From the NCBI GenBank assembly GCA_964551645.1, contig CAZKDV010000004.1:1-55221 (forward strand): a stretch of DNA of 55,221 nucleotides, in the 5' to 3' direction. The translations under genes and the position numbers were made by a program. The notes under the pieces are model-generated. The model was not told the origin of the DNA and did no database searches. It saw nothing but the letters and a program-made list of their open reading frames with translations. Each line of letters opens with the position of its first letter. Position 1 is the first letter of the stretch. Positions 3,722 to 52,189 of the stretch are shown piece after piece. Source of the stretch: an uncultured Bacteroidales bacterium. GTDB taxonomy: Bacteria > Bacteroidota > Bacteroidia > Bacteroidales > DTU049.

Positions 3722-5041
3722 TTATTTTTGTTCTGTCCATTTCAGTCTGTCTTCTTTTGAATATTGCCATGGAGATCCATTATTTTCAATATTTGCAAAA
3801 ATTGTGTTTAGTTGATGTGGAGCATTTCCTTCTTCCATTACAAGATAACGCCTCAAATCAATAATAAAAGTAGTATGGTCAATATTCAAAGGACATTCTT
3901 TGGCGCAAGCATTGCATGTTACGCATGCCCAAATTTCTTCTTCAGTAACATAATCTCTAATTAAAGATTTGTTGTCATTATATGCTGTGCCTTCTTTTTT
4001 CAAACCTTTTGATTTTTCATTCATTCGCTTACGAATATCCATAAATAGCTTTCGTGGAGATAGTGCTTTGCCAGTAATATTGGCAGGACATACAGCAGTG
4101 CATCGTCCACATTGCGTACAGGCAAGCGAATCAATATAGTTTTTCCAAGTAATATTTTCGACATCTAAAATTCCAAATCTCTCAATTTTTTCAGTTTGAG
4201 AAATAGCGTCAATGTTTGTAAATAGTTCAGGATTTAGTATAATTTGTGCTTCTTTTGTGATTTGCTCCATAGTGTATAATTTACTCAAAGGAGATAATCT
4301 GCTTAAAAATACATTGGGCAATGAAAGAAAAATATGAAAATGTTTAGAATATGGTAAGATATTAGCAAAAATAAAAATCAAAAGTATATGTGTCCACCAA
4401 TTAAACTTGTACCAAAAAATGAGTTTTGGAGTAGATAAATTTGAAAATAAAGGAGCTATGTATTTGCTTATCGGATAGTTTACCACACAAGCATCAGTAT
4501 GCAGTGCCATAAAAAATGTATTTAAACCTGCAAGGCTAAGCATCAATAAAAAAATAAAAGTCAAAGCAAGATATGCGTCTTTGTGGTTTTTTTTGCTTAA
4601 TTCTTTTCCATGCAAACGAGCAATATTCAAATAATATCGCCTTATAATGAAAATAATTATACAAATTCCTATTATGTATGCAAACACATCACCAAAGCTC
4701 ATTAAAAAACAATAGGTATTTCCTAATATTGCGAAACTTTTTTCTAGTCCAAAAACTCCATCAACGACTATTTCTAAACTTCCGAAAAGAATTATGCAAA
4801 ATCCCCAAAATACAAGAGCGTGCATAATTCCAGCTATACGATTACGAAAAATTTTTTTTTGAAAAAATCCATTGACAAAGATTAGTTTGATGCGTTTGCC
4901 AATTCTTTTTATAGGATAAGCACTTCTGGTTAGCTTGAAGTTTTCAATAATTATACTAATGGAATATATAAAAACTCCAATTGTAATAATCAAAAGAGAT
5001 GTAAAAATTAATTTCTCCATTGTGATTGTTAGCTTGAACAC
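3722..5041 (-). CDS. integral-membrane protein with C-terminal 2x[4Fe-4S] ferredoxin domain (DsrM/HdrE-like anchor fused to a DsrK/HdrD-like N-terminal part)
   Basis: 439 aa with about six hydrophobic helices carrying conserved-looking His residues. Two motifs follow: CTQCGRCTAVCP and CVTCNACAKECP (CxxCxxCxxxCP). Confidence 0.75.
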   Translation of the reverse strand: MFKLTITMEKLIFTSLLIITIGVFIYSISIIIENFKLTRSAYPIKRIGKRIKLIFVNGFFQKKIFRNRIAGIMHALVFWGFCIILFGSLEIVVDGVFGLEKSFAILGNTYCFLMSFGDVFAYIIGICIIIFIIRRYYLNIARLHGKELSKKNHKDAYLALTFIFLLMLSLAGLNTFFMALHTDACVVNYPISKYIAPLFSNLSTPKLIFWYKFNWWTHILLIFIFANILPYSKHFHIFLSLPNVFLSRLSPLSKLYTMEQITKEAQIILNPELFTNIDAISQTEKIERFGILDVENITWKNYIDSLACTQCGRCTAVCPANITGKALSPRKLFMDIRKRMNEKSKGLKKEGTAYNDNKSLIRDYVTEEEIWACVTCNACAKECPLNIDHTTFIIDLRRYLVMEEGNAPHQLNTIFANIENNGSPWQYSKEDRLKWTEQK

Positions 5042-22247: not shown

Positions 22248-22319
<72 letters not shown>

Positions 22320-22499: not shown

Positions 22500-25400
22500 A
22501 TGAAAACAATAGGCAAATTGTTTGGTTTTATGCAATTTTTAATAATTGCTATGCTCTTTAGCGGAGTTTTTTCTTTTGCGTATGGGCAATATTCAGGTAT
22601 TGGAACATTTAACAAAATAACTTCTCTTACTGATTTAACAGATGGTTATTATGTAATTGTTAATAGTGGAGATGCTTCTTTTGCAATGAATAATACCCAT
22701 AATGGAACATTTTTAGCCAACACATCTGTAACACCATCAAGTGGCAAAATAACAAATCCATCACCTTCAATCGTTTGGAAAATTGAAACAAATGGGAGTG
22801 GGCGTACAATTTATAATGAAACAACTAAAAAGTATGTATCATACACTGGCTCAAGCAATAATGTGCAAGTGGTTGATGCTGTTTCTACTGATAATCAAAG
22901 ATGGACTATTACTTATGGCTCTAATGTGTTTACATTTAAAAATGTTGCTATTAACACTAGAATGTTACAATACAATACTAGTTCACCTAGATTTGTTTGT
23001 TATCAAGCTTCTTCTAACCAGCAAAATCTATTATTATACAAAATGGTTGCTGCTACTCCAACAATAAATCTTTCATCTCCTTCGCAAACGGCTGCTGCGG
23101 ATATTACACAAAGCTCAAACAATAATATTATATCTCACTTTCAGGCTGCTATTACTACTACTGACGCAACATTAAATTCATTACAATTTACTACAACTGG
23201 TACCTATCAAGCAAGTGATATAAATGGCAATTTCAAACTTTATTATAGCACATCATCTACATTTGGCAGTGCCACTCAATTAGCCACAGTTGCTTCGGGA
23301 GTTGCTGGCGCATTTACATTTACTGGTCTTTCTAAAGCCATAGTTAGCGGAACTACTGGATATTTTTGGATTTTACTTGATGCCTCAGCAACATCAGGTG
23401 GAAACAGAACTCTGACAGTTTCGGCTAATCCAACGCTTACATTTGCAAGCGGAACACCAACAGGAACAATTACAGCAGGCGGACAAAAGACATTTAAAAC
23501 TCCAACAACACCAACAATTACAGTTGGAAGTATTGCTGCATTTGGAAATATTTGTATTAACACAACATCAGATAAATCATATGCAGTTTCAGGAATTAAT
23601 CTTGTTGAAAACATCATCATAACTTCTCCATCAGGGTATCAAATTAAAACAGGTGCTGGTTCTTGGGGAACAAGTTTAACGCTTGTTCAATCAGGAGGTA
23701 CCATTAATAGTACAACTATTGATGTGCGTTTTGCTCCAACATCTGTTCAGTCATATAGCGGAAATATTACACACACAAGTAGTGGAGCAACTCAAAGCAA
23801 TGTTGCAGTTAGTGGTGCTGGGGTTAATACCCCTCCTTCTGTTACAACTGTTACAGCTACAAGCATAACATCAGAAAGTGCTAAATCAGGAGGTAGTAAT
23901 ATTGATGCAGGTTGTGGTACTATTTCAGTTAAGGGTGTAGTTTGGGGAACTTCAGCAAATCCGACTGTAATTTCAAACATTGGAAAAACTGAAGATGGAA
24001 ATACAACAGCTAACTACACTAGCTCTATAACTGGACTTAATGCAAATACTTTGTATCACTATCGTGCGTATGCTACTAATAACGATGGAACGACAAGCTA
24101 TGGAACAGACTTAACATTTACCACTTTAAAAAATGTCCCAACAACACAGGCTTCAAACATCACATTTTCATCAGTTGATGTTTCGTCTATGAACATTAAT
24201 TGGACATCAGGAAATGGCGATAAGAGAATAGTTGTTATCAATACGACAAATTCGTTCACTAATCCGACTGACGAAACTGACCCAATTGCAAATGCTACAT
24301 ATTCGGGCTCGGGACAGCAAGTGGTGTACAATGGCAACGGTAACATTGTTACCGTAACAGGCTTGTCGCAAAAAACAACCTATTGGTTTAGAGTGTATGA
24401 ATATAACAACACAGGAACTAACACCAAATATTTAATTTCAACAGCAATAAACAATCCCAATAGCGAGCAAACAATTGATGGACCATGTGCAACTGAAAAT
24501 TTTGACAATTTGCCAACAACCAATGGAAGCACATATACATATCGTTCATGGACAGGCACAGACGGTGTAACATGGACAGCTGAAGGAGCACGAACAGATG
24601 AAAAGATTGATGGTAGCATGGCAATTTGCTTTGGAGGATCAGGAACCAAAAAGCTTAATTCTCCCACATACACAGGTGGAATGGGTAAACTGACCTTTAA
24701 ATATGTTAGAGCTTTTACAGGAACAGGAACAAGAGCGTTAGAAGTGTGGGTTAATAGCAATAAAATAGATGATATTACAGTTAATGCATCTTCAGATGTA
24801 GTTGTACTTTATTCTAAAGATATTAACATTGGAGGCAATGTTGAACTTGAAATTAAGAGCACAGGAGCTCAAGTAAAAATTGATGATATTAGCTGGGCTT
24901 GCTACGAAGATACACCAATATCAGAAATGGTGGTAAAAGGCAATTCAACAATTATTGCAAATGGCGACAACACTCCATCATTAACAGATCATACTAATTT
25001 TGGCAATATTGAGGCTGCTTTGGGTACAATAGTTAGAACATTTACAATAGACAATATCGGAACAGGAGCTCTTAATTTAACCGGAACAAGTCCTTATGTT
25101 AGTATAAGTGGTGCACATGCAGGCGATTTTACTGTTTCACAAGCTCCGAGCACTCCAATTGCTGCAAGCAGTAGCACAACATTCAAAATTACATTTGACC
25201 CAAGTATTGTGGGAGTAAGAACGGCTGTTGTTAGCATAGCAAATAATGATTCAAATAAAAATCCTTATACATTTACTATTCAAGGAACAGGCACCAATAG
25301 CAGCTTGTCTGATATTATTGAAGATAATACTATATATACTTCAAATATTGACTATACTTTATATCAAGCCGAAACAATCACCAATACTTCTCACAGTGTA

Positions 25401-28400
25401 AGTGTAATGCGATTTACAATCAGAGATGGAGGTGAAGGTAGTGATAGCGATAATTTAGGTACAGAATTAAATGGAATTACTTTTTCTGTTACAAATATAG
25501 ATAATATTCGTAGTGCTGCTTTGTTTGATGTAAACACTATGCTTGCAAATAATCCTACAATTAATTATTCTGCTGGAACTATTACATTTAGTGGCTTGAG
25601 CGGAGCAAACTTTACAGCTCCCGATAATGGAAGTAAGTCTTTAATGTTTAGAGTTAGTTTTGACAATACAGTAACTGATAAATCGCAAATGCAATTTACT
25701 ATATCAGAAGCAAATGCAAATGTTTCCGGATCAAGTTTTGCAAGCCCAAATGCCGGTGGTGCAACTTCAAGCATAGTCGGGGATAGAAATAGAATTGAAG
25801 TAGTTGCAGATAGATTAAATTTTACACAACAACCAAGCAACACAACTGTTTTTGCAAATATGTCTCCTATTATTGTTGCAGCAGTAGATGCGAATAATAA
25901 CAGAGATATTGATTTTTCATCTAGTATTTCAATCACATCAACAGGAACTTTATCAGGAAGCCCGGTATCAAGCAATGCAGTTGGTGGATATGCAACTTTT
26001 AACGAATTAATTCATACCGTTTCTGCTACAGCTTTAAAGCTAACGGCACAAACTACTGGTTTATCTTATAGCAATTCAGTTGTTTCAAATACATTTGATG
26101 TTATTGAATTTGCTTATGTAAATGGTGATTATCGTCCATTATATGCTAATGTTGATTTATCGCATAATGGTTCATGGGAATATTTTAATGGAACAACATG
26201 GGGTGCAACACCTGGAAATTTGGCTCCTCAAAATGCAGCTACAAAGCCAAGCAGAGTAATTATTGATAAAAGCGGAATTACTGGAGGTGGTAATTCTTCC
26301 AATTCATATAATGACATTATCATAATAAATGGAGGAGAATTAATATTAGACAATAATGCTAATCCAAGTGCTGATTTTATAAGTGTAGGAAAAAAACTTG
26401 AAATTCAGGACGGTGGTGCTTTGATAGTAAACGGACAGATACGCTTCAATTCGACAGCAAATTTTATTATCAGAACAGGTGGCACACTAACACTTAACAG
26501 TAGTTCAATTGGTAACAGTCATGGATTTTGGTCTGGTATTGAAAACTTTGAAATAGGTTCAAATTTTATTGTTCTCAATCATAGAAATGATGGAGGAGGA
26601 ACATCAAGTTTAATAAACACATCATACGGTGCTATTTCAAACAATTCGGCAGGTGCTAAATTTGGAAATTTGATAATAAATTTTGCTCCGTCTCAAACTT
26701 GGGTTATTATGGGAGGTGGTGAAAATATAACTCTATGTGATAATTTGACTATTACTAATGCGGGTATAAGTCCGATAGCGATGTTTTCAAATACAAATGG
26801 ACCAGTAGTTACAATTTTAGGAGATTTTACCCATAATTTAGGTATATTAGGTCTGACTAATACATTTTCAGGCACATCAACTTCACAAACACTTCATATA
26901 AATGGCAATCTTACTTCAAATGCAGGCACACTCAAGTTATTCCATTCAGCTGGAGGCAATGCAGGCGGTATTAATGTGAATCTCAAAGGAGATCTTTCAA
27001 TTGCTTCAGGTGTAACTGTTTCTAATGATGGAATACCTGCAAATTGTAGTTTTAATTTGAACGGTACAGAATTGCAAACGCTTAATATTGCACCTAATAT
27101 TACGGGTTGGAGATTTTTTGTAAAAGAAAATGCCAGCGTTCAATTAGCAGGTAATGATATGAAATTAAACGGAAATAGTACAATAACTGTTGAAACTGGA
27201 GCAACATTTGATTTTGGATTTAATGGCACAACTGCATTAAAAGTGAATCAAGTTGGCGGAACGGGAAACAGTTTTACAACACAACAAGCTAGTACATTAA
27301 TTATTACATCTCCAAATGGAATTTCAGGAGTTACAGGAGGATTAGGCAATGTTGAAGGTATTCCTACCGCAAATAGGATATTTAATCAACTTGCAACATT
27401 CCACTATAAAGGAAAAGAAAATCAAATTACTGGAAATGGCTTGACAAACGCTTCAAACGGAAAAATATTGATAGTTGAGCTATATAATAACGATATTTCG
27501 TTAACATTAACCAACGGAACAGGAATAACAAACAATACTACACTTAGTCCTGATGGAGGACGACTTGAAATTAAAAAAGGTATTCTTGTATCTGATGCTA
27601 CAGCTCCTATTTCAAGTACGGGCAAATTAATTATGTCTGATGGTACATATAAAATTGCTGAATTAACAACAGTTCCGCAATTAACAGGTACTTATGATAT
27701 TAGCGGAGGGACGATTGAACTTAATGGAGGAGAAGGCACTCAAACACTTAGAGCTGGAAAAGACTATTATAGCTTAACATTTAGCGGTGGCGGAACGAAA
27801 CTTACAAGTAGTGCAATAACAAATATTGGAGATAATAATAATGTAAATCAAGGTCTTGTTACAATTAAAGATGACAGCACTATACTCGATGTAGGAAGCT
27901 CAACATTTAGCGGTAATGCCGGACTAAATATGACTGATAATTCAAGATTTAGGATGAAAACTTTAAATCAAACATTACCTCAATTATTAGGCGATTACGA
28001 GTTAGTAGGTGGTACAATTGAATTGTATGGAACAAGTTCTTCTCAAACACATTCAATCAAAGGCGGTGTTACATATTACAATGTTGATATTAATGCTGAA
28101 GAAGCTAATATTAATGCAACTTATGCAAATGTTGTTGCAAGTTCAAGTTTTGCAGTTAATGGGACTATGTCTGTTAATAATCCTGCTTGTTTTAGAATAA
28201 GTGCAAATTATAATATTAGCGGTTTAGGTTCATTTATTGTGCAAGATGGTGCAACTTTCAAATATGCTCATGTTGATGGTATTTCATATATTGAAAATGT
28301 AGGAAATATTAGAACGGCAAATAAACAATTCTCATCTGAAGCAAGTTATGGATTTAGCGGATCGGTAAGTCAATATGCAGGAGATGGATTACCTACTCAG

Positions 28401-30788
28401 ATTAAAAATTTATACATAGACAAAACTAGTGATGATGCCATAATAACTTTAAACAACTCATTAAGCGTTACAGCTAATGTATTGTTCTTTGGTGGTAAAT
28501 TGAGTTTGGCAGATTACAACTTAACAGTAGAAAATGAAATTCAAGATTATAGTAAAGATAGATATGTAATTACAGAAGGAGAGGGTTCTTTAACACAAAA
28601 TGTTTCTAATAGTGAAGTTGTTGATTTTCCAGTTGGAGACGCTCTAAATTATATGCCTGTTAGTTTATCAACAGTATCTGGAACTTTCCCATATAGCGTA
28701 AGAGTTAAATTGCCATCGGGAACAGTTCCTACAAAATATTATCATTTATTGAGCAAGGTATGGCATATCTCTGGAGGCTTAGGAATAAATCCAGAATTTA
28801 ATTGGACGGCAGGAGTAAACAATTCTCTTGAAACGCCAAATACTTTATTGCGTTATCATATCAATCAATGGGATGATATGGAAATTGCTCCTAATAGCAC
28901 GGCTTTATATTCAGCAAAATATTCGAATATTGCTTGTTGTAGCGAATATAGTGTCGCTGCCAAAAAGAGTGCTCCTCCACTTGATTGTGTCATTAATCCA
29001 ATTCCGACACATAATGAAACTAATGTTTCCATAAATCAAACTATCTCATGGTCGGAAGTTGAAGATGCTGATTATTATGAACTTTATTTTGGAACAATAA
29101 ATCCTCCAATCTTCTATGGAAATATTACAGAAACATCTGTGCAAATAAAATTAGAATATGCAACTACTTACTATTGGAGAGTAATTCCGAAAACAATTAT
29201 TAATGAATCAGGTGATTGCCAAACTTGGCAATTTGAAACAGAGTCTTTACCAGAAGTTAAAAATATAGTTTGGAATGGTTCTGTTAGCAATGATTGGAAT
29301 ACGGCAAATAACTGGACTCCTAATTATGTTCCTCTTGCTGCTTATAATGTAACAATACCTGCATCAAACTTATATATTAATGCTCCAGTAGTTAATGAAT
29401 CTAAACAATTTCCTGCAATATGTAACGATTTAACTATAAACAATACAGCTGAATTAACAATCAATCCAAATAAAGCTTTGACAGTTAATGGAAATCTGGA
29501 TAATAATGGCAAATTGAGCATTAAATCTACAATCATCGGAGATGGTTCTTTAATTGTTGAAGGCAATGTTAGTGGAAACACTTTTTATGTTGAAAGATAT
29601 TTCACCGGAAATTGCTGGCACATGATTTCAAGCCCAATTACTGATGCGAAAGCTGGTATATTTACAAACTTATGGTTGCGTGAATATGACGAATCAACAA
29701 ATGCTTGGGGTGCGTATATTCAAGGCAAAACTACTCCATTGACAACTGGAAAGGGCTTTTTGGTTTGGTCAGCCGAAAGCACAGAAACAAGAACATTTGC
29801 TGGAAAAATTAATACCGGAACAATTTCATTCCCAATACAGTACACAAATAATCCTAATGCAATACCATTTCAAAAAGGTTGGAATTTTGTCGGGAATCCT
29901 TATACTTCTGCAATTAATTGGAATATTGCTAGCGGTTGGGATAAACAATATATCAGCAATACAATATATATTTTCAGTGCTTCGGCAGGTAATTATATAA
30001 CTTGGAATGGATTTGTTGGTGCTGCCGGTAGTGGTAAGATTGCTATGGGGCAAGGTTTCTTTGTTCATGTCATAAACTCTAATTCTGCTATTAGCATTAA
30101 TAACTCTGCTAAAATTCATGATGAAATTCAATTTAGAGCAGCAGAAGAAAAAGAGACTATTTCTCTTAAAATTGAAGGAAATAAATATATAGATGAAACT
30201 TTCTTTGTTGTGCAAAGCGATGTTTCTGACGAGTTTGATTTTCAATATGATGCGTATAAACTTGGCGGAGTGTCTGATGCTCCACAATTATATTCAAAAA
30301 AACAAAATGAAAAACTTGCAGTTAATTCAGTAAATAGCTCATCACAATTGCACGCTAAGACTATCTACCTTGAAGTTGAAGCAGAAACCGAATACTCAAT
30401 AAGCATGAAACATTCATTAAAAGATGATTTCTTGCCATATTTACATGACAGAAAGCTAAATACATATATTCCAGCAAATGAAGTGTATAATTTTATAGCT
30501 TCAGCAAATGATATGAAAGACAGATTTGAAATTGTAAACTATGCTGTTTTAAGTGTAAATGAAGCAGAATTTGAGTCTTTGAAAATTTGGGAACACAACA
30601 ATATTGTGCATATTTCAACTCCTAAACCCGAAGAAGTTAAGTCTGTTACAGTATTTAATGTGCTTGGTGGTGTAGTGTACGAAACTACCGAATTAAACAT
30701 TGACTTGCAACATCTAACAACTGGAGTTTATATTGTGAATGTGAGGACAAATGATAAAAATCAAGTCTATAAGTTTGTAATTAAATAA
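22500..30788 (+). CDS. giant (2762 aa) T9SS-secreted cell-surface protein / putative adhesin
   Basis: Signal/anchor N-terminus; T/S/N/G-rich. It has FN3-like modules (e.g. [34 protein letters not shown]...YWFRVYEYN) and a choice-of-anchor-D-like ASH/PapD module ([27 protein letters not shown]...FKITFDP). A long beta-helix-like G/N-repeat core follows, then the type-A T9SS tail ([28 protein letters not shown]...[21 protein letters not shown]). Confidence 0.9.
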
Positions 30789-36403: not shown

Positions 36404-38851
36404 ATGAAAGTTTCATATAATTGGCTTAAAGAATTTGCTGATATTAGTTTGACTCCACAAGAATTATCTGTTTGCTTGACAGACTGTGGGCTTGAAGTTG
36501 AAGAGCTTACGTATTGGCAAAGTGTTAAAGGAGGACTTGAAGGAGTTGTAATCGGAAAAGTTTTGTCTAAAGAAAAACATCCAAATGCTGATAAATTAAG
36601 CCTAACTCAGGTTGATATTGGAGCTTCGGCTCCGTTGCAAATTGTTTGTGGAGCGCCTAATGTTGATGCCGGTCAAATTGTTGTAGTGGCTACTATTGGA
36701 ACAATATTGTATAAGGAAGAACAGACTTTTGAAATAAAACAAGCAAGAATTAGAGGAATTGAGTCTTTTGGAATGATTTGCTCCGAAGACGAACTCGGAA
36801 TAGGCAATTCTCACGATGGAATTATGGTATTAACAGATAGCGTTGAAGTTGGTACTCTCGCAAAGGATTATTTTGAAATCACTGAGGATTGGATTTTTAC
36901 AATTGGATTGACTCCAAATAGAATTGATGCTGCCTCTCATATCGGAGTTGCCAGAGATATTGTTGCTGCTTTAAACACTAAAAACTCAACTAAAATTACA
37001 CTCAAAGAAAAAAGCATTTCTGATTTTGTTGAGAATGAATCAAATCCCGTAAGTATAGAAATAGCAAATACAGAAGCATGTCCAAGATATAGCGGCATTA
37101 CAATTAGTGGAATTAAAATTGCTCCTTCGCCAAAGTGGTTGTCAGATAGAGTTACTTCACTCGGAATGCGACCAATTAATAATATAGTTGATATTACTAA
37201 CTATGTTATGTTTGAATTAGGACAACCTCTTCACGCTTTCGATATGGCACACTTGACAGGAAAAAAGATTGTTGTTAGAACATTTGAGAAAGAAACCCCT
37301 TTTCTTTGCCTTGATGAGGTTGAAAGAAAAATAAGTACCGAAGATTTAATGATTTGCAATGCAGAAGAAGGTATGTGTATTGCTGGTGTTTTTGGCGGAC
37401 TTAAATCAGGAGTTACAGAAAGCACTACCGATGTTTTTATTGAAAGTGCATACTTTAATCCACGCTATGTCAGAAAAACTTCTAACAGGCATGCACTTAA
37501 AACAGAATCATCATTTAGATTTGAAAGAGGCACAAATCCAAGTACAACAATTGAAGTATTAAAAAGAACAGTTCAGCTAATACTTGATATTGCAGGAGGC
37601 ACAGTTTCATCTCCAATTTATGATGTTTATCCAAAACCTATTCACAAAACTGAAATAAAACTTGAGTTTGATTATGTGCAAAAAATTATAGGTTTTTCCA
37701 TACCTACAGAAATTCAAAAGCAAATTTTGATTGATTTAGACTTTGAAATTACGCACTTTGATGATAAATATGCCATTGTGCTTACTCCTCTCAGTAAAGT
37801 TGATGTAAACAGACCAATTGATGTTGTTGAAGAAATATTACGCATTTATGGATATAATCATATTCCTTTTTCAGATTTAATGAAAACAAGTTTGAATGTT
37901 TCTATAAAACCTAATCCATATAAATTGCAAAATATAGTTTCTGACATGCTTGTTTCAAATGGTTTTTATGAATTAATGACAAACTCTCTAACTAATGCTT
38001 CGTATTACAAAAACACTACAAATGACGATTTAGTTCATGTCTTAAACCCATTGAGCAAAGAATTAAATGTTATGCGTAAAGATATGCTTTATTCCGGCAT
38101 AGAAGCTATTGTTCATAATATTAACCGCAAACAACATAATCTAAAGTTTTTTGAATTTGGGAAAATTTACAAAAAAGTTATTTCACCAAAAACTGAAAGT
38201 CTTAATAATAAATACGCTGAAGGAAACAGATTAGTGCTATTTATTACTGGCTCCGATAATCCTATTAATTGGAAACATCAAACTGCTGATACAGACTTTT
38301 ATTATTTGAAAGAATATGTTAATACAATTTTAAAAAAATTTAATGTTGAAACTCAGTTACAATCAGAGCAATCGTCTTCCGAACTTTTTACATACGGATT
38401 ATCATATAAACTAAAGAGTAAAAAAAGCATCATTGCTGAATTAGGAAAAGTGTCAGAAAATCATCTTGCACTTTTTGATTGTAAGCAAGAAGTATTTTAT
38501 GCTAATATCAATTGGGATTTATTGATAGAAATGTATGCAGAAATAGGAGCAAACATTAGTGAACCTCCCAAATATCCCGAAGTTCATAGAGATATTGCAA
38601 TGTTGTTAGATAAAGATATTCAGTATCAGCAAGTATATGATATAGTAATGGCAAATGGCGGAGGCATTGTGCAATCGGTATCTCTATTCGATGTATATCA
38701 AGGTAAAAACATACCTGAAGGAAAAAAATCTTATGCAATAAATATTATACTTCAACATAGCGAAAAAACTCTTTCGGATAAAGAAACTGAAATAATTATT
38801 AATAAAATAAAGAAAACTTTTGAAATATCTCTGAACGCAACTATCAGATAA
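36404..38851 (+). CDS. pheT: phenylalanine--tRNA ligase beta subunit
   Basis: MKVSYNWLKEF... N-terminus, tRNA-binding OB domain (KHPNADKLSLTQVDIG...QIVCGAPN), B3/4, B5 and FDX-ACB domains; 815 aa. Confidence 0.97.
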   Translation: MKVSYNWLKEFADISLTPQELSVCLTDCGLEVEELTYWQSVKGGLEGVVIGKVLSKEKHPNADKLSLTQVDIGASAPLQIVCGAPNVDAGQIVVVATIGTILYKEEQTFEIKQARIRGIESFGMICSEDELGIGNSHDGIMVLTDSVEVGTLAKDYFEITEDWIFTIGLTPNRIDAASHIGVARDIVAALNTKNSTKITLKEKSISDFVENESNPVSIEIANTEACPRYSGITISGIKIAPSPKWLSDRVTSLGMRPINNIVDITNYVMFELGQPLHAFDMAHLTGKKIVVRTFEKETPFLCLDEVERKISTEDLMICNAEEGMCIAGVFGGLKSGVTESTTDVFIESAYFNPRYVRKTSNRHALKTESSFRFERGTNPSTTIEVLKRTVQLILDIAGGTVSSPIYDVYPKPIHKTEIKLEFDYVQKIIGFSIPTEIQKQILIDLDFEITHFDDKYAIVLTPLSKVDVNRPIDVVEEILRIYGYNHIPFSDLMKTSLNVSIKPNPYKLQNIVSDMLVSNGFYELMTNSLTNASYYKNTTNDDLVHVLNPLSKELNVMRKDMLYSGIEAIVHNINRKQHNLKFFEFGKIYKKVISPKTESLNNKYAEGNRLVLFITGSDNPINWKHQTADTDFYYLKEYVNTILKKFNVETQLQSEQSSSELFTYGLSYKLKSKKSIIAELGKVSENHLALFDCKQEVFYANINWDLLIEMYAEIGANISEPPKYPEVHRDIAMLLDKDIQYQQVYDIVMANGGGIVQSVSLFDVYQGKNIPEGKKSYAINIILQHSEKTLSDKETEIIINKIKKTFEISLNATIR

Positions 38852-51074: not shown

Positions 51075-51540
51075 AGAGCACAACAGTACTTCTCCGTAAA
51101 CTCTGTGGTAAAATCTCAACAACTTATTAACCACAAAGCACACAAAGCAAGCACAAAGGGCACAATTCTATTTCTCTGTGAACTTAGTGCCTCCACTGTG
51201 AACTCTGTGGTAAAAAAAATGACACTTCATTAACCACAAAGCACACAAAGAATGCACAGAGGACACAACACTATTCCTCCGTGAACATTGTGCCTCCTCA
51301 GTGAACTCTGTGGTTAAAAAAACGACACTTCATTAACCACAAAGAACACAAAGCAAACACAAAGGGCACAATTCTATTTCCTTGTGAGCTTAGTGCCTAC
51401 ATTGTGAACTCTGTGGTTAAAAAAAGGAAATTCATTAACCACAAAGCACACAAAGCAAACACAAAAACACAGTTTTATCTTTCTGTGAATTTAGTTCTTC
51501 TACTATGGTGAAAAAATAATTATATTTGTAAAAAATCATT
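51075..51540. repeat. tandem array of about 103-bp palindromic CACAAAG-rich units (partial copy, three full copies, one degenerate copy)
   Basis: Units at 51127-51229, 51230-51332 and 51333-51434; a degenerate unit from 51435; a partial unit at about 51075-51126. Each starts TTAACCACAAAGCACACAAAG and ends GTGAACTCTGTGGTTAA(A)n. Confidence 0.9.
51521..51528 (+). promoter_or_regulatory. Bacteroidota-type -7 box TATATTTG
   Basis: 12 nt upstream of ATG 51541, inside the degenerate last repeat unit. Confidence 0.4.
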
Positions 51541-51924
51541 ATGACCGAAAACGAAATAGCCATAAAAGTAATCGAATGTGCAATAAAAGTTCACAAAGCA
51601 TTAGGTCATGGTTTGTTAGAAGAAGCATATAAAAAATGCCTTTACTATAAATTAGTCAAAGAAGGCTTGTATGTGGAGAAAGAAAAAGTCTTACCATTAA
51701 TTTTTGAAGACATCGAAATTGATAGAGCCTATAGAATTGATTTGCTTGTAGAAAACAAACTTGTTTTAGAATTAAAAAGTGTTGAAGCATTAAATGATGT
51801 ACATTTAGCCCAAATATTAACTTATTTAAAGTTAGGCGACTTCAAATTAGGATTGCTACTGAATTTTAATGTAACAATAATGAAAAATGGCATAAGAAGA
51901 GTAATAAATGGGACACTTAATTAA
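51541..51924 (+). CDS. GxxExxY-family protein (small, PD-(D/E)XK-like fold by recollection)
   Basis: 127 aa. KVHKALGHGLLEEAYKKCLYYKL contains the GxxExxY signature. YRIDLLVENKLVLELKSV resembles a D...ExK-type core. The stop codon lies inside the next repeat unit. Confidence 0.85.
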   Translation: MTENEIAIKVIECAIKVHKALGHGLLEEAYKKCLYYKLVKEGLYVEKEKVLPLIFEDIEIDRAYRIDLLVENKLVLELKSVEALNDVHLAQILTYLKLGDFKLGLLLNFNVTIMKNGIRRVINGTLN

Positions 51925-51992
51925 CCACAAAGCACACAATTGTATTTATTCGTGAACTTAGTGCCTCCACTGTGAACTCTGTGGTTAAAAAA
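51921..51992. repeat. terminal (shortened) copy of the same repeat unit
   Basis: TTAACCACAAAGCACACAA...CGTGAACTTAGTGCCTCCACTGTGAACTCTGTGGTTAAAAAA. The second half is identical to unit 1. Confidence 0.85.
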
Positions 51993-52006
51993 TTAATTTC
52001 TTAATA

Positions 52007-52189
52007 TATTTGTTCAATATTGCCAAATCACATTACAATACATCTAAATATGTTCCTTTTGGAGCTATTAGCAAAGCCATGCCTTATTTGATTAGGAGAG
52101 CGGAAGAAAAAAACTCATCTGTGCAAGAACAATCAAATAGAGAATTGTACAATATCAAAAAAGAATTAAAAAGAAGGAAAAACAAATAG
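52007..52189 (+). pseudogene. 3'-terminal remnant (about 60 codons) of a proline dehydrogenase gene
   Basis: The frame is open only from 51989; the in-frame TAA at 51986-51988 lies inside the repeat. Translation ...YLFNIAKSHYNTSKYVPFGAISKAMPYLIRRAEEKNSSVQEQSNRELYNIKKELKRRKNK* matches my recollection of the conserved Pro_dh C-terminus (KY-P-[FY]-G...MPYLIRRAEEN...RE). No start codon, promoter or upstream coding sequence is present. Confidence 0.65.

Follow-up and report, generated by a model that had tools for sequence, protein, structure and literature searches.

GxxExxY (PDDEXK_3) nuclease genes joined to C[A/G]CAAAG iteron palindromes: a candidate homing-like composite element at a Bacteroidales locus

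The stretch of DNA analysed here (the window: 55,221 nt from an uncultured Bacteroidales bacterium, assembly GCA_964551645.1, contig CAZKDV010000004.1) carries a small gene of the GxxExxY (PDDEXK_3) family within an array of inverted repeats built from C[A/G]CAAAG iterons. The original prediction for this locus, made from the sequence alone, held that repeat and gene form a single evolutionary unit, and a comparison of homologous loci supports this with high confidence. The reading that we favour, and hold tentatively, is that the locus is one copy of a widespread and undescribed composite element, in which a homing-like selfish nuclease is combined with a repeat module.

Association of GxxExxY genes with iteron arms

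The comparison set consisted of 80 loci from a genome scan, encoding proteins 63–75% identical, and came from many Bacteroidota families as well as from bins labelled Caldithrix, Neomarinimicrobiota, Brocadiaceae, Chlorobiota, and Treponema. One locus binned as Pseudanabaena (L060) is nearly identical around the gene to Flavobacterium contigs (the L046, L070 group), which suggests a mis-binned contig. In the 350 arms found across all loci, an arm was made of up to four C[A/G]CAAAG iterons in a fixed order, spaced by 9, 11–13, and 9 nt, and ended in TTAACC or GGTTAA. The motifs CACAAAG and CGCAAAG were enriched ~50-fold within 150 nt of 86 genes. At least two iterons were present within 120 nt on one side of 76 of the 80 genes and on both sides of 55, with control sites in the same loci reaching 2.6%. 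Paralogues without such flanks, the result that the original prediction had named as speaking against a single unit, are therefore not what the scan returned.

The commonest layout was a left (L) arm, the gene from ATG to stop, and a right (R) arm, with TTAACC/GGTTAA outermost, so that the gene lies inside the unit. In this layout the ATG abuts the innermost iteron of the L arm and the stop falls in the innermost iteron of the R arm (e.g., ACT CTG TGA). In 25 loci the gene had a strong arm at either end (arm-ATG...stop-arm), and pairing analysis gave 27 nested units. Other gene loci are flanked by whole units, and the layouts R-gene-L (the window locus) and R-gene-R were also found. The junction between two units, which had been proposed as the seat of the gene, is thus not its typical position in the family. 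Two gene copies within ~3 kb were held by 4 of the 80 loci.

The array of the window and its occupied junction

In the window, the array at 51089–51994 is formed by five copies of a ~103-nt unit, and the GxxExxY gene lies between units and not inside one. Tandem Repeats Finder reported a period of 103 with 3.9 copies and 80% matches at 51099–51495, and the repeat search gave five copies of each arm, the fifth copy being shortened and located 3' of the gene. Counts of the two arm motifs in the window were 7 and 10, compared with 0.04 and 0.14 expected from shuffles; outside the array, the 55 kb gave only one weak match, at 38120, with 3 mismatches. Each unit reads L arm (TTAACC, then CACAAAG iterons), a loop of ~10 nt, R arm, and an A-rich spacer, the R arm being the inverse of the L arm and ending in GTGGTTAA. 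An array of clustered regularly interspaced short palindromic repeats (CRISPR) was rejected, as the whole 103-nt period repeats, would-be spacers included. The features are listed below, all on the + strand; L001 is a Joint Genome Institute (JGI) contig carrying the same site.

51089–51113, +: partial R arm opening the array, CTTCTCCGTAAACTCTGTGGTAAAA, then a degenerate junction spacer, TCTCAACAACTTA; identical in L001.
51127–51214, +: unit 1, with L arm 51127–51165 (TTAACC and CACAAAG iterons), short loop, and R arm ~51176–51214 ending GTGGTAAA; from the repeat search, ~90% identity with L001.
51215–51229, +: empty junction 1-2, an A-run and TGACACTTCA, a gene-tail remnant (compare the gene tail at 51912–51924).
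51230–51317, +: unit 2, with L arm 51230–51268 and R arm 51279–51317; missing from the 1-unit strain form.
51318–51332, +: empty junction 2-3, AAAAAACGACACTTCA, quoted in the original prediction; read from the sequence.
51333–51420, +: unit 3, with L arm 51333–51371, 10-nt loop, and R arm 51382–51420; 39-nt arms, 74% complementary.
51435–51516, +: unit 4, with L arm 51435–51473, degenerate, shortened R arm ~51478–51510, and A-run 51511–51516; R arm intact in L001.
51517–51540, +: 24-nt leader with a Bacteroidetes-type -7-like box, TATATTTG (51521–51528); read from the sequence.
51541–51924, +: GxxExxY / PDDEXK_3 nuclease gene, 384 nt, 127 aa; from profiles, alignment, and model.
51906–51924, +: tail module, the last six codons (I-N-G-T-L-N) and stop; 51912–51924, GACACTTAATTAA, is common to the empty junctions; read from the sequence.
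51921–51994, +: unit 5, shortened, with L arm 51921–51939 (two iterons), loop, R arm 51952–51988, and A-run 51989–51994; from the repeat search.
52005–52021, +: second TATATTTG box (52005–52012) and right edge of the DNA common to relatives; synteny with the L001-type strain ends at ~52021, and a loose end lies at 52021 in run X4.

The sequences quoted for the empty and occupied junctions were all found in place. The empty junction, GTGAACTCTGTGGTTAAAAAAACGACACTTCATTAACCACAAAG, covers 51301–51344. The occupied one reads CTACTATGGTGAAAAAA (51500–51516), then TAATTATATTTGTAAAAAATCATT, the open reading frame (ORF) at 51541–51924, and GACACTTAATTAACCACAAAG (51912–51932). The difference between the two is exactly the 24-nt leader plus the ORF up to AATGG, and GACACTT(A/C)ATTAACC is common to both. 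The last codons of the gene, GGG ACA CTT AAT TAA, correspond to ACA CTT CAT TAA of the empty junctions; the arm terminus TTAACC contains the TAA stop. The claim that the final codons and the stop of the gene are repeat sequence was hence correct for the window, and it generalises to the family. The arm directly upstream of the gene is degenerate in the window (~9 nt missing) and intact in L001, and unit 5 is 19–20 nt longer in L001 and in contigs of the metagenome runs X3 and X4.

The original prediction laid its emphasis on a hairpin at the junction. The inverted repeat at the junction has 31–37 nt per arm, 70–74% complementarity, and a 14–15 nt gap, and pairing within a unit is at least as good (39-nt arms, 74% complementary, 10-nt gap). 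As the arms pair equally well within the unit and across the junction, the junction hairpin is a side effect of units lying in tandem. The two-base spacers between iterons form Watson-Crick pairs in 33% of cases within units, compared with 31.5% between unrelated units. This lack of extra complementarity within units leads us to read the palindrome as inverted protein-binding arrays and not as a maintained stem, so the hairpin emphasis was not upheld.

The TATATTTG box, which we take to correspond to the TAnnTTTG consensus, follows an R arm and A-run twice, before the GxxExxY gene and past the last unit. No gene follows the second box in the window, unlike in L001, where one is present behind it. 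CAC-type arms end in nine outer bases, TTAACCACA, of which 8 agree with the DnaA-box consensus TTATCCACA; this may be a coincidence.

The gene tail covaries with the iteron type

Arms fall into two types, CAC and CGC, and the type of the arm is matched by the end of the protein. Residue 122 is I in all 33 CAC loci and V or A in 38 of the 40 CGC loci (p = 9e-19), tails ending ...INGxL going with CAC and ...VVNxL with CGC. Residue 122 and tail length together predict the iteron type in 97–99% of loci. The protein body shows no such partition, its identity being 72.5% within types and 72.2% between types. Moreover, two loci each contain a pair of genes that differ in type, and every gene there has arms matching its own type. 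This covariation of the tail, absent in the body, indicates that the last ~6 codons belong with the arm module, and the ORF body behaves as a module separate from arms and tail. This pairing of residue 122 with iteron type (I with CAC, V or A with CGC) suggests a simple switch in specificity.

A minimal PD-(D/E)XK protein

The window protein matched TIGR04256 with 135.3 bits (cut-off 35) and PF13366 with 134.3 bits (cut-off 22), over the full length. It carries the motif G24-L-L-E27-E-A-Y30, in which G24, E27, and Y30 are invariant in the 80 sequences, and it has an unusual substitution, P23H. E27, D67, E77, and K79 are likewise invariant in these 80 sequences, which represent two subfamilies and served as the input alignment for AlphaFold2. 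The resulting model (pLDDT 93) has its elements in the order expected for an alpha-beta-beta-beta-alpha-beta core. The best Foldseek matches were Cas4 SSO0001, lambda exonuclease, and LHK-Exo (probability 0.96–0.99, E ~2e-3, TM ~0.5), and the distant matches also included tRNA-splicing endonucleases. With only distant matches, the protein looks like a minimal PD-(D/E)XK core lacking a close solved relative. The window protein is a member of the PD-(D/E)XK superfamily, as the original prediction had proposed, with a putative catalytic D...(D/E)-x-K placed on the central sheet by the model. Sequence and model together make it likely that the enzyme is active.

Sequence and profile searches of the Protein Data Bank with the window protein gave no match, and exact-protein lookup found no identical record. 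PADLOC and PHROGs returned weak Cas4 similarity only and no phage family, nothing there pointing to a defence system or a phage gene. The family comprises 28,620 clusters at 50% identity. Some of its representatives (P0241–P0249 and others) are ~275–295 aa long with two tandem GxxExxY domains, being either fused tandem genes or true two-domain proteins. The family is rare on plasmids (2 matches) and viral contigs (1 match), which suggests that these are not its usual vehicles. A survey of the superfamily lists PDDEXK_3 as "Unknown", with "multiple transfers" (PMC3424549).

Transfer, occupancy, and decay of the ORF

The ORF has been transferred between lineages. Two loci (L003 and L011) represent the same thiolase / DEAD-helicase site, both with the gene. 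At third codon positions the thiolase genes are 60% identical and the helicase genes 53%, compared with 97.6% for the GxxExxY gene, which is 99.2% identical over all positions. In the multiple alignment the tract of high identity starts sharply at the ATG and runs through ~60 nt past the stop, with the downstream L arm; in a separate pairwise comparison, the first 60 nt past the stop were 90% identical. In L003, ~50 nt of the thiolase 3' end (3760–3806) are duplicated past the insert (4590–4642), and this remnant resembles the thiolase end of the more distant L011, suggesting import by recombination anchored in the flank. Four more same-site pairs have genes 95–99% identical compared with flanks at 82–92%, and one pair shows the reverse, the flanks being more similar than the gene.

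Occupancy of a single site also varies. Occupied and empty alleles, which the original prediction had proposed to look for, were found at one orthologous intergenic site in four Chitinophagales loci: arm-gene-arm in L063, the gene there having an in-frame stop, an empty palindrome in L045, and decayed remnants in L032 and L092. Decay is seen in pseudogenes with in-frame stops that have kept their arms (L039, 3001–3381; the second copy in L063, ~990–1370). In Mariniflexile (L002/L014), the NADH dehydrogenase operon contains the gene, which is located between nuoK and nuoL. Loci of Lutibacter and Algibacter (L016, L017) share the nuoK-nuoL flanking DNA, and the site appears to be the same, with a different number of flanking units.

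Arms sampled without regard to the gene

In a reverse test, metagenomes were scanned with one L-arm pattern, giving 120 loci. A GxxExxY gene was present within 500 nt of 7 of the 120 arms, leaving 113 without a gene; these are pooled metagenome loci and not those of one genome. The gene-less arms clear of contig ends comprised 50 L-R palindromes, 13 R-L palindromes, 37 single arms, and 1 array. Arm sites away from genes amount to ~2–2.5 per 100 kb. Gaps between paired arms were bimodal (0–100 or 300–600 nt), the long class being that of the GxxExxY gene, and no other recurrent ORF, the four-helix-bundle family included, was found after single arms or between arms. The loops of solitary units (4–127 nt) were unrelated in length and sequence. 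Internal deletion in the style of miniature inverted-repeat transposable elements (MITEs) was rejected as a general origin of solitary units, the loops being unrelated and free of gene remnants. Neither gene ends nor any orientation of the neighbouring gene pair (convergent, tandem, or divergent) was favoured by solitary units. Multi-unit arrays, defined by at least four termini in 1.7 kb, were present at 27% of gene loci compared with 0 of 65 gene-less loci (p = 7.5e-7).

An L arm nearly identical to that at 51333–51370 of the window (3 mismatches in 38 nt) was seen in unrelated context on contigs of runs X3 and X4. Its carrier is another, very abundant organism of the sample (depth of the X3 contig, 269).

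Strain variation at the window locus and its neighbourhood

The organism was found in bioreactor and wastewater metagenomes, and the number of units at the locus differs between its strains. Upstream of the gene, L001 has one unit where the window has four; its downstream unit is full-length. The window and L001 are 100% identical in the left flank, 97.9% in the gene, and 80–90% in the units, the least conserved part, indicating that the repeats change fastest. Runs X1 and X3 contained contigs of both the 4-unit and the 1-unit form, the latter with a joint from 51217 to 51530 that was also seen in run X4. With both forms coexisting in the same samples, the array is still in flux.

Synteny with the L001-type strain stops ~30 nt past the last arm (~52021), where that strain has a proline dehydrogenase in place of the type IX secreted protein of the window; both arrangements occur in the same samples. 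A 4-nt tandem duplication, GGCA, follows 51888 in contigs of 3 of the 4 runs. The last 12 codons would thereby be frameshifted, with loss of the invariant G117 and R120; the duplication is absent from the window, L001, and run X2.

Upstream of the locus lies a glycan-synthesis operon (ATP-grasp, metallophosphoesterase, two GT2 and one GT61, hexapeptide transferase, and PIG-L deacetylase), and downstream, in convergent orientation, a type IX secreted PKD/SprB/CHU_C protein, by which the genome is recognised as that of a member of the Bacteroidota. No integrase or transposase was found among the 29 window ORFs scanned, which are ordinary chromosomal genes. A 2762-aa ORF is located at 22500–30788, near a tRNA gene (22248–22319).

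A homing-like model and its alternatives

We propose that the element has two parts. The first would be the arm module, with up to four C[A/G]CAAAG iterons and TTAACC ends, usually in inverted pairs; the second would be the ORF module, a minimal PD-(D/E)XK nuclease set between two arms, its final codons and stop being supplied by the arm module. Probably as a symmetric oligomer, the nuclease would bind the inverted iteron arrays and cut an unoccupied palindrome, after which recombinational repair off an occupied copy would copy the ORF body in, in a homing-like gene conversion. Occupied sites would then decay to a pseudogene, to an empty palindrome, and to a single or degenerate arm, so that empty units would be both targets and remnants. 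The extra units of the window, each with a tail remnant, may have arisen by local duplication or unequal recombination of tail plus unit, possibly stimulated by cleavage. This model keeps the selfish cassette targeting the palindrome that had been put forward for the locus, and modifies it: the ORF body is separate from arms and tail, and the stop and last codons belong to the arm module. It is even more tentatively that we regard GxxExxY / PDDEXK_3 genes and C[A/G]CAAAG palindromes as a new class of prokaryotic selfish element, whose nuclease would home into and locally amplify a dispersed non-coding palindrome that supplies the stop and a specificity-linked tail.

Several observations weigh against the homing-like model. 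The gene is found in three layouts (L-gene-R, R-gene-L, and R-gene-R), and the presence of both L-R and R-L orders, together with one-third of gene-less arms being single, is awkward for one fixed recognition geometry. In many same-site pairs the gene diverges about as fast as the flanks, which fits long vertical residence, and the GC content of its third codon positions follows that of the host, a comparison of little diagnostic value. The unusual conservation of the protein (~70% identity across phyla) could reflect a host function. Finally, no gene-less allele was seen at the window's own site in the contigs of the metagenome runs.

Among the alternatives, one modelled on repetitive extragenic palindromes (REP), their doublets (REPIN), and the associated tyrosine transposases (RAYT) survives best, although we consider it unlikely. 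Here the units replicate, and a largely vertical, domesticated nuclease mobilises or maintains them in trans, its own ends serving as substrates. Arms far outnumber genes in the pooled metagenome scan, genes are flanked by cognate arms, and several gene loci are syntenic across genera, as at nuoK-nuoL in Mariniflexile, Lutibacter, and Algibacter; the arrays of alternating orientation recall the bacterial interspersed mosaic elements (BIMEs) of E. coli, and their restriction to the vicinity of genes could mean a preference in cis. However, the enzyme is not an HUH/Y1 transposase, and a nuclease alone cannot join DNA. The genes are neither single-copy nor stable, in view of the two-copy loci, the pseudogenes, and the replacement or transfer of the ORF, and the units, with their loops unrelated in sequence and length, do not resemble copies of one master.

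The second reading offered for the locus by the original prediction, in which the units are passive scars left after tandem GxxExxY genes were lost by direct-repeat recombination and the protein does not act on the repeats, seems quite improbable for the element as a whole. It holds in part, and for the window array only, where each unit carries a G-T-L tail remnant (GACACTTCA, from the conserved tail), and it fails for solitary units and single arms, with their unrelated loops devoid of gene remnants. Also in its favour, arrays occur only beside genes, two-domain proteins of ~275 aa show that tandem gene copies exist, and so do pseudogenes and decayed units. Scars do not, however, explain why there are arms in the first place, why these share a fixed four-iteron architecture across phyla, why both limits of the ORF coincide exactly with arm ends, or how an ORF can be 99% identical between lineages with saturated flanks.

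Host regulatory or architectural sites are, in our judgement, more doubtful again. The arrays would be bound by the GxxExxY protein as a non-mobile DNA-binding or repair factor, or by another host protein, with the gene beside its own operator. Ordered spacing, as seen in the iterons, typifies sites that proteins bind cooperatively; the spacers lack compensatory pairing; conservation of the protein is high, some residues being invariant; and solitary units are unbiased toward gene ends or gene-pair orientation. But pseudogenes, presence and absence at one site, and ORF transfer are unexpected for a housekeeping factor; the copy number of the units differs between strains; and the strictly kept putative catalytic triad points to cleavage and not to binding alone.

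Least probable of all is an RNA-level element, the arms forming a long transcript stem (terminator, stabiliser, or RNase III site) that encloses or flanks the ORF. The minus strand of unit 3 in the window does fold far better as RNA than the plus strand (-40.5 vs -25.3 kcal/mol; z -6.8 vs -3.2), A.C mismatches exceed G.U on the sense strand family-wide (186 vs 109, a weaker bias of the same sign as in the window), sub-threshold Rfam matches to miRNA-like hairpins are all on the minus strand, and in arm-gene-arm loci the space from arm to ATG is too short for a promoter; against this, the spacers do not covary, most arm mismatches are transversions, one-third of arms have no partner, no Rfam family matched at gathering score, and neither a U-run after the stem in the window nor a bias of units to gene 3' ends was found. 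Terminators in particular were rejected, as solitary units have no bias to convergent or tandem gene pairs.

Comparison with known systems

The literature searched held no published account of the gene-repeat association. Homing endonucleases are among the nearest parallels to the element, and free-standing homing endonuclease genes include a PD-(D/E)XK enzyme, I-Ssp6803I. As with such genes, a small nuclease ORF sits centrally in symmetric sequence, one site has occupied and empty alleles, lineages differ less in the ORF than in its flanks, and degenerate copies consistent with a homing cycle exist. In place of a conserved host gene or intron, the putative target here is a non-coding iteron palindrome that is repeated, and it supplies the stop and last codons of the GxxExxY gene. 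Sequence searches of solved structures showed no relation to I-Ssp6803I or to other homing enzymes of known structure.

ORF-bearing intervening sequences of 23S rRNA encode a four-helix-bundle protein (TIGR02436) and are patchy and multi-copy in Bacteroidota and cyanobacteria. They too enclose a small ORF of ~120 aa in long inverted repeats, but the present elements are not in rRNA, the fold is different, and the TIGR02436 family was not found in arms. Integron cassettes with attC sites offer promoterless ORFs tightly bounded by imperfect palindromes of 60–140 nt, strand-biased folding, and a stop codon overlapping the site. In contrast to these, the unit ends of the window, CATTAAC / GTTAAAA, do not fit the RYYYAAC / GTTRRRY cores, and units are tandem with no ORF between them or dispersed singly. 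An integron cassette array was rejected on these wrong cores and on the lack of an integrase among the 29 window ORFs scanned.

Insertion sequences (IS) and MITEs share inverted terminal arms around one small gene and gene-less versions that are commoner. The GxxExxY elements differ in having no DDE, serine, or tyrosine transposase, in gene-less loops unrelated to the gene ends, and in the R-L order that is possible. An IS or MITE identity was rejected for lack of a transposase domain among the window ORFs scanned and of a separate target-site duplication; with TTAA belonging to the palindrome itself, none separable from it was found.

With REP/REPIN-RAYT systems and the BIMEs of E. coli (PMC3116915, PMC3337134), the elements share a small gene flanked by its own palindromic repeats, repeats that outnumber the gene in the pooled metagenome scan, a pairing of repeat type with gene type, and alternating arm orientation in arrays. 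The differences are a PD-(D/E)XK fold in place of an HUH/Y1 transposase, the only Pfam/NCBIfam matches being PDDEXK_3 / GxxExxY, and multi-iteron arms of ~40 nt in place of 20-nt hairpins with a GTAG or CGTC tag. Unlike a RAYT, the GxxExxY gene may lie within the palindrome, occurs in several copies, decays, and transfers.

This very large family, to which no function has been assigned, gains a testable substrate through the link of nearly every sampled member to one ordered DNA motif, and with it a concrete hypothesis: a selfish nuclease that would home into palindromes. If true, this would explain the GxxExxY genes inside conserved operons (nuoK/nuoL) and at strain-specific synteny breaks, as well as a class of intergenic palindromes in many phyla. 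Should cleavage be sequence- or structure-specific, the enzymes may be useful reagents. The logic of the element resembles that of known selfish nucleases and of repeat/transposase pairs; what is new is the enzyme family, the iteron architecture, and the tail common to gene and arm.

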